A stretch of 64,000 nucleotides of DNA, taken from positions 744,001 through 808,000 of the forward strand of contig OY253674.1 in assembly GCA_958009085.1 (NCBI GenBank), read 5' to 3'. Origin of the DNA: Protoeuglena noctilucae. Its lineage: Eukaryota. The position numbers were made by a program, and so were the translations under genes. Within the stretch, counting starts at the first letter, position 1. Each line of letters starts with the position of its first letter. Below the pieces are notes generated by a model. That model had not been told where the DNA came from. It saw only the letters and a list, made by a program, of their open reading frames with translations, and ran no database searches. This document shows, piece by piece, positions 51,746-62,339 of the stretch.

Positions 51746-52393
51746 TCATCGGTCGGGGACGATCAGCTCGTCGACGTTCCAGTCCTCGTAAGAGCCGTCC
51801 GGCAAGAAGCGCCGAATGGTAAAGGGGATCTTCTTCTCCATGAGCTCCTGCGGCACGGTAGCTGGCGAGCAGCGTGTGGCTGGGAGCACGCAGCCATAGG
51901 CCTGGGTGCGGCGCCGAGCCTAGATGCGAGCACCCTCGCCTTCATTGCGATGTCGAGTGGGTCCGTCATGCCCTCGGGGTCCACCCGGAGCGGCGCGTTC
52001 ATGGAAATCTGCAGAGCGCGCGTGCCCAGGATGCGCGCACGCTCGTACTTCGTCATGTACCTGCACCGAGCATAGATTGAGGCTGTCTACTGACCAGCGT
52101 TGAAACGTAGTCACCGCATAACTCTCTGCGTTCTGTAACGTCACCTCGTCGTGATGCGGGGGCGCTCCCCGGCCCCTGCCGTCGGGTTTTGCAGGACCTG
52201 CACGCCCTGCTCCACATCCTGGCTGCCCTGATCCACGTCCATGTCTTCCTCACCGGCATCCCTGCGACAGGCGCGAGCACCAGGGTCAGGCGGGGCTCCA
52301 AAGAGACGCCGTCGCGCCGCACAACCGGAGAGGGTCCATGGGGCGAGCGGCCGGGTCGCCAGCGCACCCCTCCATCTCCGGATCATCCTTCAT
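51746..52393 (-). CDS. RPB6: RNA polymerase I/II/III shared subunit RPB6 (RPABC2), 4 exons
   Basis: '[64 protein letters not shown]'. Confidence 0.97.
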
Positions 52394-52727
52394 GTTCGCA
52401 GCTTCCGACCAACGCGCCCAGCGGCGCCCCAGAGGCCCCTCCCTGCCCCAAGTGTCGCAGACGTGCGCAACGAGTGAAAGGTCGGTTCAGGGCCAGATAC
52501 AGCGCCCCCGGGGTAACAATTGCTTGAGTGCTTCCAAGCTCTTCAAGATGATGGCCACGCCGGACCCTGGGAGTGGCTTTCGCTCCGGCGGCCGAAACCG
52601 GGTAGGGCAAGGCAGGGGCGGGTCCGACGCACTCTCCGTCGCCCCGGCGGCGCGTTTGCCGATCAGTGTAGCCGGGCGCCGCCTCGTAGTTGCCACGTGC
52701 GCCAGCCTCGACCCGACAGGAAGGGCG

Positions 52728-55700
52728 ATGGCGCCCGAAATCAAGATTTGGGGCCAGGGGTCCCGCCTGCTGCTATGCCGGATCGTGGCTGCTGCAGGTG
52801 AGACTTTTCGGCGCGAGGCATCGATGGCGTGAAGATGACGCACGGGCGCCCGCGTTCGCGACCGCCGTGCCGCGTGCCAGCCCCAAGCTGACCCGGCCGC
52901 TCCTGCGCTGGATTCCGGCCCTGCTCGCGTCGCGGGGGGTCTCCTGCACGCGTTGCCTTGCCGAGGGGTGTCGCGAGGGCCCGGGCCGCGATCCGCGATC
53001 CCCAGCGAGCGGAGCGCCCCTCCTGCGCCCGCAGCTGGGGTGGAGCTTGACGTCCGGCCCTTCAAGATGGGGGTCACCAACAAGACGCCCTGGTTCCTGG
53101 AGATGAACCCAATTGGCAAGGTGCGTGGAGATCTGCGCCTGCTGCGGCGCCCCGGCGGTGCTGCGGGGATCGACTCCGTGCGCGCTTTTGCGGGGGTCTC
53201 GCGCGGCGCGGCGGGGGGTATTCCTGGGCCCTCGCGCACGCGAGCGTTGATTAACACGCCAGAAATGCGCCGGGTGCTGCTTTCTGCGCCACCGAGGGCC
53301 CAACGAGCGTGGCGTGGCTTCCCTTGCTGTGTCGCAGATTCCCGTCGTCCTCACGCCGGACGGCCCGCTCTTCGAGTCCTCCGCCATCTGCAAGAACTTC
53401 TGCGAGATGAAGCAGGTGTTTGCGCTGGGTCGGCAGCGCCGGCTGGGGATGTGACCGGCATCACGCCATTCCCCCTCACCAGGCTCCCTTGGCCGCCCCT
53501 CGTTGCTGCAGTCGCCCCTGTACCCCGCCGACAACGCGGTGCGGACGCACATCGACTCGTGGATGGACTTCGCCAAGAGCCTCGGCCCGATCTCGCGCAC
53601 CACGGGCTACGCCGTGGTGGGGTGGGCCGCGTTCAACGCTGACGACTTTGCCGACGGCATCGCCGCGTACAAGCGGGCGTTGGACGGCCTCGAGCGGCAC
53701 CTCGCGGGCCGGGAGTGGCTCGTGGGGTCGTCCATCACCCTGGCGGACGTGCTGGCGGGCATGGAGCAGGCCCTGCTGTACATGTGCTTCTTCGAGAAGG
53801 ACATGCAGGCGGCCTACCCGGCGACCGCGCGGTGGTTCGAGCGCGTCTACAACAGCGACGTCGTGCAGAAGGTCGTCGGGTGAGACGCCGGCGCGCCTTG
53901 GAACCCCATGCGATTCGCAGCCTCTGCGCCTGCGACGAGCAAGCCGTGCTGGATCTGACCCCTCCCCAGGGCCCCCGTGCGCGCGCCCGAGGCGGCCGCC
54001 CAGCACGGGCAGGCGGTGTACGCCCAGGTCATGGGTCCCTTCATGGCCGCCGCCCGCGGGTCGCGCCCCGAGTGGGCCGGCGACGTGGTGCGCTCGACGT
54101 TCATCGAGTTCTTCCAGACCAAGCTGCACACCGCCTGGCCCTCGTCGCCCGTGGTGCCCGTCAACGACCCCACGCTCCTCTTCACCAACGCGGGCATGAA
54201 CCAGTTCAAGGCCATCTTCCTCGGCAAGGCCGACCCGGCGTCCGAGGTGCGAGACGTGGCATGACCGACCCACCGGGGGCTCTTGTCGTGACGCGATTTG
54301 GGGCGGCGAGGCGGTTGCGAAGGTGGCCGCGGAAGTGGCACCTGGCCGGCGGCTGCGTGCAGTCCACTTGGCGGCCCGTCTCGATGTGGCTGAGCCGGCC
54401 GTGCACTGCGTGCCGCGTCAATGCAGCTGCCCACCCGGCACATGTCGCCTCCGCGCGAGTCGTCCCTTCCTCTCCTCCTCCTCAGCTCGCCAAGCTGGTG
54501 CGCGCGGCCAACTCCCAGAAGTGCATCCGTGCGGGCGGCAAGCACAACGACCTGGACGACGTCGGCAAGGACGTGTACCACCACACGTTCTTCGAGATGC
54601 TGGGCAACTGGTCGTTCGGGGACTTCTTCAAGGAGGAGGCCATCGCGTGGGCCTGGGAGTTGCTGACGCAGGTGTACGGCCTGGCCAAGGAGCGCCTCTA
54701 CGCGACGTACTTCGGAGGCGATGCCAAGCAGGGCCTCGAGCCCGACGAGGAGGCGCGGCAGATCTGGCTGCGCTACCTCCCCGAGGACCACGTGCTCCCC
54801 GGGAGCGTCAAGGACAACTTCTGGGAGATGGGCGACCAGGGGCCGTGCGGGCCGTGCTCGGAGATCCACTACGACCGCATCGGGGGCCGCAACGCCGCCC
54901 ACCTCGTCAACATGGACGACCCCAACGTCCTCGAGATCTGGAACCTCGTGTTCATCCAGGTGAATGCAGTGCCCGGGTGTGGGAGACGCGCTGCGGGTGC
55001 CCCTGCCATCACACCGCTGTTGCTCACTGGTGTTTGGTTGACGAACCCGACGATGCGTTGCCCCGCTTGACACTGCACCCCCATTGGCAATGACAGTGTG
55101 CAATGCTGCATGCCTTCACAACCTCGTTGTGGTCCCCTGCCCCCGCAGTTCAACCGTGAGGAGGACGGGTCCCTGAAGCTCCTCCCCGCCAAGCACGTGG
55201 ACACGGGCATGGGCCTGGAGCGCATCACGTCCATCCTGCAGGGCAAGATGTCCAACTACGCCACCGACGTCTTCATGCCCATCTTCGACGCCATCCAGCG
55301 GCTGTCCGGGGCGCAGCCCTACACGGACAAAGTGGGCGCAGAGGACGTCGGGAGCAAGGACATGGCTTACCGCGTCGTCGCCGACCACATCCGCACCCTC
55401 TCCTTCGCCATCGCCGACGGCGCCCGGCCGGGCAACGAGGGCCGCGACTACGTCCTCCGCCGCGTGCTGCGCCGCGCCGTGCGCTACGGCTGCGAGAACC
55501 TCGGGGCGCCGCAGGGCTTCTTCTCTCAGCTCGTGGACCGCTTCATCGCCCACATGGGCGGGGCGTACCCGGAGCTGGTCCGCTGCCGCGACGTCATTGC
55601 CGAGGTCATCCGGGAGGAGGAGGAGTCCTTCTCGCGCACGCTGACCAAGGGCCTGCAGCGCTTCAAGGCCATCGCGGACGCCTCCACGTCCGGCCTCGTG

Positions 55701-57585
55701 TCCGGCGACGACGCGTTCCAGCTGTGGGACACGTACGGCTTCCCGGTGGACCTCACGCAGCTGATGGCGGAGGAGCGGGGCATGAAGGTGGACATGGGCG
55801 GGTTCGGGACGGCCATGGAGCAGGCCAAGGAGCGCTCGAGGGCCGGTCAGAAGAAGGGCGAGAAGGCGCTGCTCAAGTTCGAGGCGGAGGCCACCGGGTG
55901 GCTGCAGAAGAACGGCGTCGAGCGCACCGACGACTCGCCCAAGTACCAGCGCGCCAACATCAAGGTGCGGGGACACCGTCCCCGTCTGCTGGCGCTTGTT
56001 GGCTTGCCATGGGTTGCACTTGTGCTGGGCCGTCCGTGACGTCGCGCGGATCCCTTCCCCGCAGGCCAAGGTGCTGGCGATTCTGACGCCGGAGGGCTTC
56101 GCGGAGAAGGCGGAGGAGCAGGACCCGGTGGGCGTGGTGCTGGACCGCACCTCGTACTACGCCGAGCAGGGCGGTCAGGTGGCGGACTTCGGCGGCCTCA
56201 AGGGCGCGCGGTGCGCCGTGACCGTGTCCGACTGCCAGGCGGCGGCCGGGTACGTGCTGCACATGGGCAGCGTGGCCGGGTCGCTGGCGGTGGGCGACGA
56301 GGTCGAGTGCTGCGTCGACTATGTCCGGCGCGCGGCCATCGTCCCGAACCACACATTCACGCACGTGCTCAACTTCGCCCTGCGTGAGACGCTGGGGGAC
56401 GGCGTCGACCAGAAGGGCTCGATCGTCAAGCCGGACATGCTCCGCTTCGACTTCTCCCACCGCCAGGGGTGTACCACGGGTGAGTCGGCGCTCGTGTGCC
56501 CGTCCCGTCCACATCGGTGCCGCGCTTCTCATCCCACTTTATCTTCTCATCGCATCGTCGCGCTTCCCGCCTCACCCCATCTCTTCCTCACCCGGTCTCT
56601 CCTCCGTGGCCCTCTCCCCGCAGACGAGCTGGCCAAGGTGGAGGCCATCTGCCGCGACCACATCGCGCGCGCCATGCCTATCTTTTCCGCCGAGGTTCCC
56701 CTGGCCCAGGCCCGCGAGATCGAGGGCCTGCGCGCCGTGTTCGGGGAGACGTACCCGGATCCCGTCCGCGTGGTGTCGGTGGGGCGGTCGGTCGACGACC
56801 TGCTGAGCAACCCCAAGGAGGCGTCCAACCGGGGCTTCTCGATCGAGTTCTGCGGCGGCACGCACCTCTCCAACACGAGCGAGGGCGGCGCGTTCGTCAT
56901 CCTGTCCGAGGAGGCGGTGGCCAAGGGCATCCGCCGCATCGTGGCCGTCATGGCCCAGGACGCTGAGGCCGCCATGGCGCGCGGCGCGGAGCTCGAGGCG
57001 CGGGTGACGGCGGCGGAGGCCTTGGACGGCCCGGCGCTGGCCGAGGCGTGCGCGGCGCTGCGGGAGGCGGTGGACACGGCGACGGCGTCGGCGGTGGTCA
57101 AGGTGGCGCTTCGGGAGCGCATCGCCGCCATGGGCAAGCGGGTGGCGGCCGCGGCCAAGGCGGCCGCCGCGGAGGCCAAGCGGCGCTCGGCGGAGGCGGC
57201 GCTGGCGGCGGCGGCCGAGGCGCAGGGGCGGGGCGAGTGGTTCGCGGTGGTGCGGCTGGCGGACGAGGCGGATGGCAAGATGCTGGTCGACGCGTGGACG
57301 GCCGTGTCCAAGGCGCACCCGTCCTTTGCCATGGCCGTCGCCAGCCGCGACCCGACCAAGCAGAAGGTGCTGGTGCTGACGGGGGTGACGGACGACCTCA
57401 AGGCGCAGCTGGACGCCGGCAAGTGGCTGCAGGCGGCGCTGGACGTGCTGCAGGGCAAGGGCGGCGGGAAGCCCAACGTCGCGCAGGGCCAGGGGACGGT
57501 CGGGTGGTCGGACGAGGACGCTGCGGTCCTGGGCCAGGCGATGGAGGCCCTGACGCAGGCGGCGCAAGAGAAGCTCAAGATGTAA
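52728..57585 (+). CDS. AARS: Eukaryotic alanyl-tRNA synthetase carrying an N-terminal EF1B-gamma-type GST domain, 9 exons
   Basis: GST part: '[37 protein letters not shown]', 'HIDSWMDF', '[11 protein letters not shown]'. AlaRS part: '[15 protein letters not shown]', '[13 protein letters not shown]', '[15 protein letters not shown]', 'DTGMGLER', editing motifs 'NHTFTH' and 'EFCGGTH', C-Ala 'GKGGGK'; stop TAA 57583-57585. Confidence 0.93.
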
Positions 57586-57803
57586 TGACGGGAGCTCCCG
57601 CTTTTTCGGAGCTGTCGTCAGACTCGCTTTTTTAGCGCTTTCGTGTCGTTGATGTGCATCTGGCTGGGGATCACGCTGTTGAATGCGAAGCTGTTGATGC
57701 GAAGCCGACCGACGTGCAGCTCGAGCGAGCAAGGTTGTGCGCCTTCGCTCTCGCGCTGTGAGATCGGGGTGACGAGGGGCATGGCCGAGCCCATGGGGCG
57801 AAG

Positions 57804-58983
57804 ATGAGCGGGTTTCGGTACGTGCCGTTCGGAGAAGGTCCCGTGCGCGCTCTGTTGGCGGAATCCTTCGCAACTGCGGCTTGCGATCTCATGTCATGAA
57901 GAGGATGAAGAGGTTGAGCTGTGTGTCGGGACCCAGCTCGCTCTCTGCCAGCGCAGGGAGAGCATCGACCGGTGGATCCGTCTCCTCCCCCCCGAGGAGC
58001 GGATGAAGGCGTCTCTGGCCGCCGCTAGCGTCCTGTCGTCTTCTTTATCAAAAGAGGAGGTGCTCGCGAAGGTTTTGCCGGGACACTGGAAGGACTTCGT
58101 CGCGTGGCGGCAGTCCTCGCTGCAGGTCTTACAGCTCGACCCCAACGTCTCTGCCCGCGCGCGCCGTCTGCATCTCCGAGCTGCCTACGCGACGGACAAA
58201 ACGCTGCTCTCCCCCGTCGCGACGGTTCAGACGGTGAGAATTCATGGACGGCGACTGGGGAAAGGCTTGACTCTGCACCGCAGTGTGAGTGTCCCCGCCC
58301 GCACTGGTCTCCCCACCCGTGCAGGCGCCGCTGGAGCAGGCCAGCACGACGGCGACGGTGCGCTTGGTGGGGCTGCTGAACGACGTGGATCCCCAGGGCC
58401 GCGTGGGAGGCATCGCCGGGAGCCTGCGGGGCGCGCTGTGCCGACGGGCGGCCCGCCTGCGCACGCTAGAGCAGGCGACGCTGGCGACGACGCGCCTGGC
58501 TGTGCGGACACACAGCCAGCTTAAGGAGGTACAGTCTCAAGTGGCGGTGGTGTACAGGTGGGCGTGCAATGCGTGCAGAGAGTGCGACGTGTGCCTGGGC
58601 CAGACTGTGAGCCACGACGGGGTGCGAATCGGTCTTTGGCGTCGCAGGGAGCAGCCGTGCACGCTGTGTCGCGAGCCGGTGCAGAGCAAGCCCGAGGGAC
58701 TGGCGGTGTATGCGTGCGGTCACGTCTTCCACGCCCCATGCCGAAGCAAGGCGGCCAAGGTGGGTCAGTCTGTGCACCAGGCTGCCATTGCTGTCGCTTT
58801 CGATAACTTGGCGACGCTCGATCGACGGAGTGCGTGCAGGAGGTGACGGGCGTGGACGTGGTGGGGCTGGGGAACGAGTGCCCGATGTGCGGAGAGGGTG
58901 CCATCCGGCGAATCACGGCGGGCTTCGGGCCTGCCTCGTCGACGGAGGCCGAGGTTGCTTTGTGGGACACGCGGCCCAAGTAG
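57804..58983 (+). CDS. Short (~259 aa) Vps18/Pep3 C-terminus-like protein with RING-H2 finger, 5 exons
   Basis: Exons 57804-57817, 57957-58233, 58325-58557, 58648-58759 and 58840-58983 sum to 780 nt; 'VAVVYREQPCTLC..VYACGHVFHAPC..NECPMCGEGAIRRITAGF..W'. Confidence 0.62.
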
Positions 58984-59676
58984 ACGCAGCCACTGGCCTT
59001 GCTCGTTGGGCCTGGCGTCCCGAGGAGCCCTCAGCGCGCTGAAACCATGAAAAAGTGCCACCCAGTGATGGACACCGGTGTACTTTGGCTGTCCGGCATC
59101 CTGTCCCATCCTGTCTTGTGACCAACCAGGCCCTGCTTTGGCCCGTGGGCGTGCGTTTTGTGCCAGTAGCACGTGTCACCCCGCCTTTCGAGCGAAGCCG
59201 TCCAAGCCGAATGTCCGCAGTCGCGGATCTTCGTGGGCCCGCTGCGCTTCGGATCGTAGGGTAGATGACCAGCGTTTTGTTACGAGTGGCCTCCGGCTGC
59301 TCGTGCAGCTCGAGCGAGCCGCAGGGGACGCGGCCCCGGAGAGTGGTGGTGAGCATCCGGCGTGGGGTATGTTTGGAAGCCAGCATGCGTCCCGCACGGT
59401 CCTGCTCGAGGCCTCTGCGGCGCGCTGGCTCCTTATCCACGCGGCTTCGCCACCGGCATGTACAGTCGCCTCCCGTGGCCTCTGCTTTCCGCGGCAGCTT
59501 CGTAGTCCTTATAGCGTGCGAGCGTGCGGCGGCCGTTCGTCCTCGGACATCGCCTGGCGCTCCGATGGCCAGCGGCGCGCCCACCAGCGGTCGTAACGAA
59601 GACCACCGCGTCGCCCGGCCCGCGCGCCGGTCCCCGCCGGCTTGGCCTGATCGACTGTCCTCTTCGTTGACCGCAG

Positions 59677-62159
59677 CAGCGGCAGGTGGCAGTGCGGAGC
59701 AGCCGGCAGGCACGCCGTCCGCGGGTGGGCCAGGCGCTCGTATGCCGCGTGTCGTCGCTGACCCGCGAGAGCCTCGCGGGGATGTCCCCCGAGGACATCC
59801 AGGCCCGGCTGGAGCCCATGGGTTCCCCGCAAAGGCATCCGCTGGAGGACCGGGCCTCGAAGGTCCCCGCGTCGCACGTGCGCAACTTCAGCATCATCGC
59901 CCACATCGACCACGGCAAGTCGACGCTGGCGGACCGGCTGCTGCAGAAGACGGGCACCGTGGACGACCGGCAGATGACGGAGCAGTTCCTGGACAATAAC
60001 GAGATCGAGCGAGAGCGCGGCATTACCATCAAGCTCCAGAGCTCGCGCATGCGCTACGAGGCCAAGGATGGCCAGGTCTACTGCCTCAACCTCATCGATA
60101 CTCCCGGTGCGGCGCTGAGCGCGAGCGCAGCAGGCGTGCGTTGCATGAAGACCCGACGATGCCCCGCGCCCACATCGGCCATCGATTCAGATGCTGTGCA
60201 GCACTGCCGGCCGCCTTCATGTCCCGTCTCGCTCTTGCACGCAGGCCACGTGGACTTTTCGTACGAGGTGTCCCGGTCCCTGGCGGCCTGCGAGGGAGCG
60301 CTGCTGGTGGTCGACGCGGCACAGGGCGTGGAGGCACAGACGCTGGCCAACGTGTACCTCGCTTTGGAAAACGACCTAGAGGTGACATGAGAGGGCAGTG
60401 AGAGAGAATTCATGTGCCACGTGCGATTTACCCCAGGACTGATTCCAGGGAGCGAATCGTGCCTGCCGGCGGCGTGCACATGGATACGCGTCCGCACCCC
60501 GCAGATCATCCCTGTGATCAACAAGGTGGACCTCCCTGCGGCGGACCCCGAGCGCGTCATGCGCGAGATCGAGGAGGTGATTGGCCTGGGCTGCTCCAAC
60601 GCCGTCCTCTGCTCGGCCAAGAGCGGCCTGGGCGTCGGGGACGTGCTGGAGGCGGTCGTGAAGCGCGTCCCGCCTCCCAAGGACACGAGCGACCAGCCCC
60701 TGCGCGCCCTCATCTTCGATTCGTACTATGACGAGTACCGCGGCGTCATTGCCTACTTCCGTGTGGTCGACGGCGTCCTGAAAGCGGGCGACGCCATCCG
60801 CTTCATCAACACGGGATGCGAGTACGACGTCACGGAGCTGGGCGTCCTGTCGCCCTTCCAGACGCAGGCGAGGACGCTGACGCCGCCGCTGCGCTCGCTC
60901 CCTGACACCGGCTGTCACGGCTACTGCTATGTGCTCTATGCTGTGGCTTGGAGAGCACCCGGCCGCGTGTGAGGTTCGCCGCCCACAAACAACCTGCCGC
61001 TTCGTCGCCCTCAGGTCCCGGAGCTGAGGCCCGGGGAGGTGGGGTACCTGGCGGCATCGATCAAAACGGTGGCGGACGCGCGGGTGGGCGACACGATCAC
61101 TCTGAAGAAGCAGCCGGCGAGTGAGCCGCTGCCGGGGTACGAGGAGGCCCAGCCGATGGTTTTCTGCGGGATGTTCCCCACGGATGCCGACGATTTCCAG
61201 GACTTGCGCGAGGCCCTGGGCAAGCTGCAGCTGAACGACGCAGCCCTGCAGTTCGAGCCGGAGGTGTCGTCCGCGATGGGCTTCGGGTTCCGGTGAGCGC
61301 CGCGCAGCAGCCGCACTGGGTGGCAGCTGCGCACACCGGCGCTGCGCACACCGGCGGCATGGCGTGGCATGACGGTGACGCCACCCTCGCACGACTCGCA
61401 GGTGTGGCTTCCTGGGTCTGCTGCACATGGACGTTGTGAAGGAGCGCTTGGAGCGGGAGTTCGACATGGACCTGGTCATCACGGCGCCCACGGTGGTCTA
61501 CCGGTGCACCACCACAGACGGCGAGGTTCACATCATCCGCAACGCCTCGGAGCTCCCCGATGGCTCGAACAGGGAATTCATTGAGGAGCCCTTCTGGTGA
61601 GACGACATAAGTTACCGGCTGCTTGTGCGTTTTTTTTGTCACCGGCGGCTGCATGTGACGGACATTCGGGGTCTCTCACCCATGCCGCCCCCGCTGCCTG
61701 GTGCCGAGCTCTGCGCGCGTCCTGTGCTGCAGTTGGCTTGAGATGATCACGCCGAAGGACTACGTGGGCCCTCTGATGGACCTGGCCCAGACGCGGCGCG
61801 GGGAGCTGGTCAACATGGTGTACCTGACCGAGGAGCGCACAAGCCTGGTGTACAACATGCCGCTGGCGGAGGTGGTGACGGATTTCTTCGACGAGCTCAA
61901 GTCGCGGTCGCGCGGCTACGCGTCGATGGAGTACAAGCTGACCGACTACCGGCGCAACGACCTGGTCCGCCTGGACATCCGCATCAACCAGGAGCCCGTG
62001 GAGCCCCTGGCCCTCATCTGCCACCGGGACAACGCCTACCGCGTCGGCAAGGCGCTCGTGAACAGCCTGAAGGAGCTCATCCCGCGCCAGATGTTCCGCA
62101 TCCCCATCCAGGCGTGCGTGGGGAGCAAGGCCATCGCCTCGGCGGCCATCCAGCCCTTC

Positions 62160-62197
<38 letters not shown>

Positions 62198-62339
62198 GTC
62201 GCGCAAGAAGAAGCTCCTCAAGAAGCAGGCCGAGGGCAAGAAGCGGATGAAGCAGTTCGGCAAGGTCGAGGTCCCGCAGGAGGCCTTCATGGCCGTCCTG
62301 CGCGTCAGCAAGACGACCGAGGACGCAGGGGAAGCGTGA
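59677..62339 (+). CDS. LEPA: Translation factor LepA/GUF1 (EF4), probably chloroplast; 5' exon unresolved (likely upstream, ~59370-59590)
   Basis: '[21 protein letters not shown]', 'ERERGITIK', '[23 protein letters not shown]', 'NKVD', 'GFGFRCGFLG', '[31 protein letters not shown]'. Confidence 0.95.

Follow-up and report, generated by a model that had tools for sequence, protein, structure and literature searches.

An eEF1B-gamma-type GST domain spliced in frame onto alanyl-tRNA synthetase in a green alga and its relatives

In a 64,000-nucleotide stretch of Protoeuglena noctilucae contig OY253674.1 (positions 744,001 to 808,000, hereafter the window), we characterized a gene whose mRNA joins a complete eEF1B-gamma-type glutathione S-transferase (GST)-like domain to a full alanyl-tRNA synthetase (AlaRS). 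The gene consists of nine exons between 52728 and 57585 on the + strand and encodes a single protein of 1181 residues, with the GST-like domain at residues 1-201 followed by a linker of about 35 residues and a complete AlaRS (tRNA-synt_2c, tRNA_SAD and DHHA1). We read the protein as a cytosolic AlaRS orthologous to a family of green-algal GST-AlaRS proteins in which the GST domain would, by analogy with other synthetases, act as a non-catalytic docking module. We give this reading as a whole a probability of about 0.6.

Expression and splicing of the fusion were assessed using a search of public sequencing runs (15 runs), of which three RNA runs (X1, X2 and X3) and one DNA run (X8, labelled 'organism A') were aligned to positions 52000-58200. 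All sampled words of 53338-54959 were present in four runs labelled 'organism A', while four metatranscriptome runs from one study and two samples held 48-68% of them, which is about the exonic share. The listed RNA contig pieces were all 100% identical to the window, with 0 differing letters. Every one of the eight introns appeared as a GT..AG joint in each of the three RNA runs, and no intron joint was seen in X8, where the stretch was covered as one unbroken piece. The joint connecting the two halves of the gene (53878/53969, skipping exactly 90 nt, GT..AG) was found in 3/3 RNA runs versus 0/1 DNA run. In case of X1, one contig of 3678 nt (record 2) starts at about 52683, ahead of the ATG, and extends over the GST exons, the linker and every AlaRS exon as far as 57668, and in X2 and X3 a contig of about 1 kb holds exons 1 to 5 and crosses into exon 6. 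No RNA contig of X1, X2 or X3 covered intron 4, and the drop in depth in bin 53863-54069 was that expected for 90 spliced-out nucleotides. RNA contigs and alignments thus place GST domain, linker and full AlaRS in one frame and on one mRNA, as in the green-algal fusion family. The initial annotation had proposed such an in-frame fusion, and its coordinates, intron borders and frame were all correct, including an end at 54246 that agrees with the donor GT at 54247. At the intron 4 junction, where it had called for an RNA check, the contigs of all three RNA runs were spliced and did not end at TGA 53881-53883. The gene model is as follows, in window coordinates.

52683..52727, + strand: 5' untranslated stretch, from RNA contig cover (X1 record 2, X3 record 7) and the depth of bin 52621-52827; 52683 is a contig start, not a mapped transcription start
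52728..52797, + strand: exon 1, ATG at 52728 and first strand/helix of the GST-like domain; donor GT at 52798; joint 52793/53031 in 3/3 RNA runs
53035..53120, + strand: exon 2, GST N-terminal subdomain with the motif [18 protein letters not shown] common to EF1G-bearing proteins; RNA joints on both sides
53338..53415, + strand: exon 3, end of the GST N-terminal subdomain (cis-Pro, FESSAI); RNA joints and alignment
53512..53879, + strand: exon 4, GST C-terminal subdomain (Pfam GST_C 3.3e-9, GST_C_2 2.2e-7, GST_C_3 3.5e-5)
53880..53969, + strand: intron 4, 90 nt at the GST/linker boundary, starting GTGAGA and ending CCCCAG
53970..54246, + strand: exon 5, linker and start of the AlaRS catalytic core; donor GT at 54247
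54486..54959, + strand: exon 6, AlaRS catalytic core (tRNA-synt_2c 3.3e-69); RNA joints
55149..55964, + strand: exon 7, AlaRS catalytic and tRNA-recognition part (tRNA-synt_2c 1.1e-84); RNA joints
56065..56479, + strand: exon 8, AlaRS middle part; RNA joints 55962/56063 and 56478/56623
56624..57585, + strand: coding part of exon 9, end of the editing domain (tRNA_SAD 1.1e-14) and C-terminal DHHA1/C-Ala (DHHA1 2.6e-8); stop after residue 1181

If intron 4 were retained, TGA 53881-53883 would stop the frame; once spliced, codon 201 (GG/G) leads in frame into a 33-residue low-complexity linker rich in Ala, Pro and Gln and on to the AlaRS start '[15 protein letters not shown]'. Residues 40-88 of exon 5 correspond to positions 2-50 of tRNA-synt_2c (Pfam, 1e-18) and exons 5 to 7 together to positions 2-460, while exon 9 carries the editing-domain end and the DHHA1/C-Ala part of a class IIc AlaRS (Pfam). 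The window has a G+C content of about 68% throughout and its introns are short with GT..AG borders, which marks it as eukaryotic DNA. The gene is a nuclear gene for the cytosolic-type AlaRS of a high-GC marine green alga. An upstream start was also considered. In-frame ATGs at 52548/52551 would add a 60-residue extension rich in Arg, Ala and Ser (stretch 52548-52727) that resembles a targeting peptide. This candidate start is not supported by the RNA: contigs of the fusion gene begin at about 52683 (near 52720 in X2), although contigs do not map starts, and before about 52683 the RNA cover belongs to a divergent Rpb6 transcript only.

Two subdomains make up the GST fold. Exon 4 matched Pfam GST_C with 37.3 bits (cut-off 20.7), as expected for the helical C-terminal subdomain. 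Exon 3 alone gave a weak match to Pfam GST_N (0.022; 15.5 bits, under the cut-off of 20.9), and the N-terminal subdomain with its cis-Pro was recognized by aligning the joined residues 1-80 with the GST_N parts of homologues P0001, P0002 and P0046, all of which pass Pfam GST_N. P0001 (1188 residues; GST_N, GST_C, tRNA-synt_2c, tRNA_SAD, DHHA1) had been returned by a word-index search for longer proteins using exon 4. This search and a second one using P0001 residues 1-230 returned P0001 only, which the later profile search showed to be a limit of the index and not a sign of rarity. Among the best 60 of 143 solved-structure matches of the P0001 GST part, the human eEF1B-gamma GST domain ranked first (5dqs/5jpo, 6.8e-15, residues 6-211), with bacterial GSTs close behind. 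An exhaustive search using the same part yielded 2454 matches at E<=0.001, and the best 150 of these comprised 50 proteins with an EF1G domain, 3 with an AlaRS core and 97 with neither (many of them fragments).

The GST part of the window protein (residues 1-208) aligned with 50/50 EF1G proteins (best 3e-33 in that small database). Identity to EF1G-bearing proteins was 29-37% over nearly the whole domain in the 12 best-scoring matches, and the motifs [20 protein letters not shown] and FESxAI are common to both. The window protein itself shows no Pfam match to the EF1G domain (PF00647) and has no room for one, with residues 202-234 forming the linker and the AlaRS match starting at 241; likewise, none of the AlaRS-bearing matches (0) was found by an EF1G query. 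Lacking the EF1G domain, the protein is not an eEF1B-gamma. Its closest sequence relatives are nevertheless the GST domains of EF1G-bearing proteins, and the fused clade lies beside or among EF1G rows in trees. Judged by these similarities, the domain is an eEF1B-gamma-type GST without the gamma C-terminal domain, which upholds the assignment made at the outset. Two further proteins were noted here: P0003 (1852 residues) contains four tandem GST + EF1G units, a fourfold eEF1B-gamma repeat in one protein, and P0137 (546 residues) has an eEF1B-gamma-type GST followed by a WHEP-TRS domain.

To place the gene among its relatives, a profile of four fused sequences was used to score 8000 candidates and the best 120 AlaRS relatives were taken. 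An N-terminal GST domain precedes the AlaRS core in 57 of these 120, where the core starts at about residue 190-300; in the others the core begins within about 100 residues of the N-terminus, with few exceptions (e.g. P0262 and P0268). Named fused forms come from Haematococcus, three Trebouxia strains, Astrephomene, Gonium, Pleodorina, Coccomyxa, Edaphochlamys, [Myrmecia] bisecta, two Volvox species, Chlamydomonas incerta, C. schloesseri, Pedinophyceae sp. YPF-701, Bryopsis, Caulerpa, Symbiochloris, Elliptochloris, Tetraselmis, Pyramimonas, Pterosperma, Polytomella and Chloropicon primus (labelled 'alanine--tRNA ligase'), and a partial gene model from Mesotaenium adds a streptophyte alga. Unfused forms of about 950-1020 residues in the same list come from Chlorella, Micractinium, Auxenochlorella, Prototheca, Parachlorella, Monoraphidium, Tetradesmus, Chlorokybus, Closterium, mosses and flowering plants. 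Records of fused proteins are mostly labelled alanine--tRNA ligase or hypothetical protein. Several are open reading frames (ORFs) from MMETSP transcriptomes that are marked complete, which gives independent RNA-level support for the architecture. Further, a protein atlas holds three clusters of 50-84 members with AlaRS representatives of 1180-1194 residues, and in one of them GST_C is found on 84% of members.

Compared over their full length, the window protein and fused proteins are 53-58% identical; in the GST part alone, identity is 29-40% in the 25 best matches. No relative closer than 58% overall identity was present in the list of best relatives, so that the window represents a separate lineage. 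The gene is an ordinary orthologue, one more member of a deposited and automatically annotated green-algal family. The initial annotation had tied the fusion to 'this lineage' and considered that the architecture might be novel; given its presence in 57 of the 120 best AlaRS relatives from many green algae, often under the name alanine--tRNA ligase, that scope was too narrow, and novelty has to be given up for an architecture that is widespread and already annotated. What did hold is that AlaRS is classically a synthetase without a GST domain: it is absent from the GST-bearing synthetases named in the accessible parts of aminoacyl-tRNA synthetase reviews and of a database paper (PMC11580382, PMC4394549, PMC7373986), and the reviews, as far as they are accessible, treat AlaRS as a free enzyme without a GST-like appendage. 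In the searchable full-text literature, which misses most subscription journals, we met with no account of an AlaRS that carries a GST domain. The GST-AlaRS family is thus known in databases and under-described, and its role has apparently never been studied.

The history of the fusion was examined using two trees. In a FastTree analysis of the GST domain (100 rows, about 200 columns), all 47 fused GST domains and two fragments of about 190 residues formed one set with a support of 98, and a single change suffices to explain the fused label when five ambiguous rows are left out. The adjoining group contains two GST-only models from Botryococcus and EF1G-bearing proteins. The tree that the initial annotation had asked for therefore shows the fused domains as one clade next to the eEF1B-gamma GST domains. 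The Botryococcus braunii models, P0007 (Bobra.0036s0031) and P0163 (Bobra.0036s0033), are near-identical and have neighbouring locus numbers, and P0163 has a tail similar to the fusion linker of P0001. Both may be GST-AlaRS models cut short, or genuine stand-alone copies.

A tree of the AlaRS core was built from 100 rows (21 were left out: 20 mostly flowering-plant sequences and P0194). This tree follows the algal classes, with fused and unfused forms interleaved; the fused label changes 3 times across the 39 named rows (22 fused) and 12 times across all 100 rows (58 fused). Some of the 12 changes are probably truncated gene calls on environmental contigs. Fused environmental proteins group with Closterium among the streptophytes (support 99), in agreement with the Mesotaenium model, and the AlaRS core of the window is nearest to the pedinophyte protein P0198 (support 96, FastTree). 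The simplest reading of these trees would be a single ancient fusion in the green lineage, with later losses in Chlorellales, Sphaeropleales and most streptophytes; the trees are unrooted and fast, and do not formally tell gain from loss. Three environmental proteins of 941-947 residues (P0196, P0197 and P0199) are unfused and nested in an otherwise fused environmental clade, with cores 78-81% identical to P0158. Standing for large clusters (105 and 307 members), they may be gene calls cut short at an intron, or the GST domain may really have been lost there recently.

The domain is expressed and has been conserved in many green-algal classes, and so is under selection and must have some function. 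As a putative non-catalytic docking module, it would keep AlaRS attached to eEF1B or to a GST-networked synthetase complex, and Ala-tRNA would then be made beside the factor that carries it to the ribosome. The initial annotation had likewise suggested tethering to eEF1B or to an algal synthetase complex, which by analogy is plausible. The analogues behind this proposal are animal ValRS with its eEF1B-gamma-like GST domain, and MetRS, GluRS and Arc1p with their GST-like domains; in the accessible part of one account, ValRS requires its GST-like domain to bind eEF1B (PMC4394549). We consider the odds of any docking role to be even or slightly better, while docking to eEF1B specifically is doubtful. 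A wider scenario, which we regard as unlikely, would make GST-AlaRS the ancestral cytosolic AlaRS of green plants, sitting on eEF1B via its eEF1B-gamma-type domain. It would then be an independent counterpart of the animal ValRS-eEF1H assembly, and a second machine for channelling between synthetase and elongation factor, which Chlorellales, Sphaeropleales and land plants would later have lost. If true, channelling would serve the amino acid that GC-rich algal proteomes use most. The fusion is present in close relatives of Chlamydomonas, which makes the genus tractable for testing.

Several points weigh against our interpretation. The RNA evidence for this gene consists of assembled contigs of a single study (3 runs, 2 samples). 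As rare isoforms are dropped from contigs and transcript ends are not visible in them, a minor intron-retaining, GST-only form is possible. The trees are FastTree analyses or quick searches of a short domain of about 200 columns, and an earlier quick tree with five fused rows gave an unstarred support of 89 with one EF1G row inside the fused set, a result since superseded by the 100-row tree. Repeated loss in several lineages suggests that the GST domain is dispensable. Further, the accessible part of a complex map for plants and Chlamydomonas names no AlaRS among the members of synthetase complexes (10.1101/815837).

The GST domain could instead be functional in binding glutathione or in sensing redox state, and so regulate AlaRS or protect it, e.g. 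during oxidative stress. The window copy does keep the cis-Pro and the glutathione-site pair E65-S66 (within FESSAI), and some eEF1B-gamma proteins reportedly have glutathione-dependent activities. Across the family, the residues that keep the fold are those most strongly retained: G51, cis-Pro 54, W95 and the A156-D157 capping box are conserved in at least 91% of 45 fused sequences, and P54 shows 98-100% conservation. In contrast, E65-S66 is found in only 71% of the 45 fused sequences (EF1G proteins: 89% and 86%), and near residue 12, where a catalytic residue usually sits, S, T, P and G occur with no conserved Ser, Tyr or Cys. This pattern would fit a structural or interaction domain better than an enzyme, and the known role of the nearest relatives, the eEF1B-gamma domains, is assembly. 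We therefore regard a redox module as improbable. Similarly small is the chance that the domain has nothing to do with eEF1B or a multi-synthetase complex and either makes AlaRS a homodimer through the GST-GST contact of classical GSTs or assists folding or tRNA handling in cis. Classical GSTs do form dimers (general knowledge; accessible part of PMC4394549) and AlaRS is not named among the plant complex members (10.1101/815837), but the GST-like domains of other synthetases use heterotypic contacts in the accessible parts of PMC4394549 and PMC9136112. Finally, two separate products, namely a GST of about 200 residues that intron retention would end at TGA 53881-53883 and an AlaRS that starts unfused at ATG 54031, with the fusion as an assembly or read-through artefact or a minor form, are very unlikely as the main output: the unspliced frame does stop at 53881, an in-frame ATG is present at 54031 and the absence of rare isoforms is beyond what contigs can show, but 0 RNA contigs lie over the intron, the depth there fits splicing, uninterrupted fused ORFs occur in many other species (transcriptomes included), and the Met pair before the core, rejected as a conserved internal start, is absent in P0158, P0152 and P0011.

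Some observations concern the 3' part of the gene and its neighbours. In the Ala-rich part of the AlaRS C-terminal region (57068-57149), the RNA contigs of X2 and X3 (depth 17.7 and 3.7) carry 14 other letters in place of the whole stretch, and loose contig ends cluster at 57042-57190 in RNA and DNA runs alike. This variation may be low-complexity cross-matching or a variant form. The X2 and X3 AlaRS contigs continue past the stop to 57816 and, via a GT..AG joint (57816/57956), into the next + strand region, while X1 stops at 57668; the read-on reflects either overlapping untranslated regions (UTRs) of tandem genes or a 3'-UTR intron. Within 57586-58850, an ORF at 58289-58843 has a RING-finger match under the cut-off (zf-RING_Vps41 5.1e-6). 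A multi-exon gene for a GUF1/LepA-type translation GTPase lies at 59671-62336 on the + strand (GTP_EFTU 1.5e-38, EFG_C 2e-17, LepA_C 9.5e-48). Upstream, a gene for the RNA polymerase subunit Rpb6 lies divergently on the minus strand (51766-52552; Pfam RNA_pol_Rpb6 8.8e-7) and is interrupted by two introns, which appear as CT..AC joints 52058/52143 and 52260/52367 in 3/3 RNA runs. The Rpb6 contigs stop near 52552, leaving about 130 nt to the AlaRS contig start (about 52683), which suggests that the two genes share a short promoter region.

Compared with known systems, the gene is closest to the deposited green-algal GST-AlaRS proteins, which show GST_N/GST_C, linker, tRNA-synt_2c, tRNA_SAD and DHHA1 in the same order and mostly have 1131-1230 residues; examples are Chloropicon primus P0244 (1215 residues), Gonium pectorale P0185 and Pedinophyceae sp. 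YPF-701 P0198, along with proteins from Volvox and Trebouxia and MMETSP transcripts from Pyramimonas, Pterosperma, Tetraselmis and Polytomella. The GST-like domain of eEF1B-gamma is the nearest family to that of the window. It differs in that eEF1B-gamma carries an EF1G domain after the GST, which the window protein lacks, and the fused GST domains form a clade of their own. MetRS, GluRS/EPRS, CysRS, AIMP2, AIMP3 and Arc1p resemble the algal protein in having a GST fold on a translation protein, used for heterotypic contacts (accessible parts of PMC4394549, PMC9136112 and PMC7373986), but are more distant in sequence, with none of them among the best 60 of 143 solved-structure matches. In the accessible part of the AARS Online description, the domain table gives GST only for CysRS, GluRS-E, MetRS and ValRS (PMC11580382). 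Of these, animal ValRS offers the best parallel, having an eEF1B-gamma-type GST at the N-terminus of an otherwise free-standing synthetase (accessible part of PMC4394549). ValRS is a class I enzyme and its fusion belongs to deuterostomes, whereas the algal AlaRS is a class II enzyme of green algae, and with hosts this different the two fusions are independent. If eEF1B or a synthetase complex does serve as a dock for AlaRS, green algae would provide a second, independent case of coupling between a synthetase and an elongation factor.

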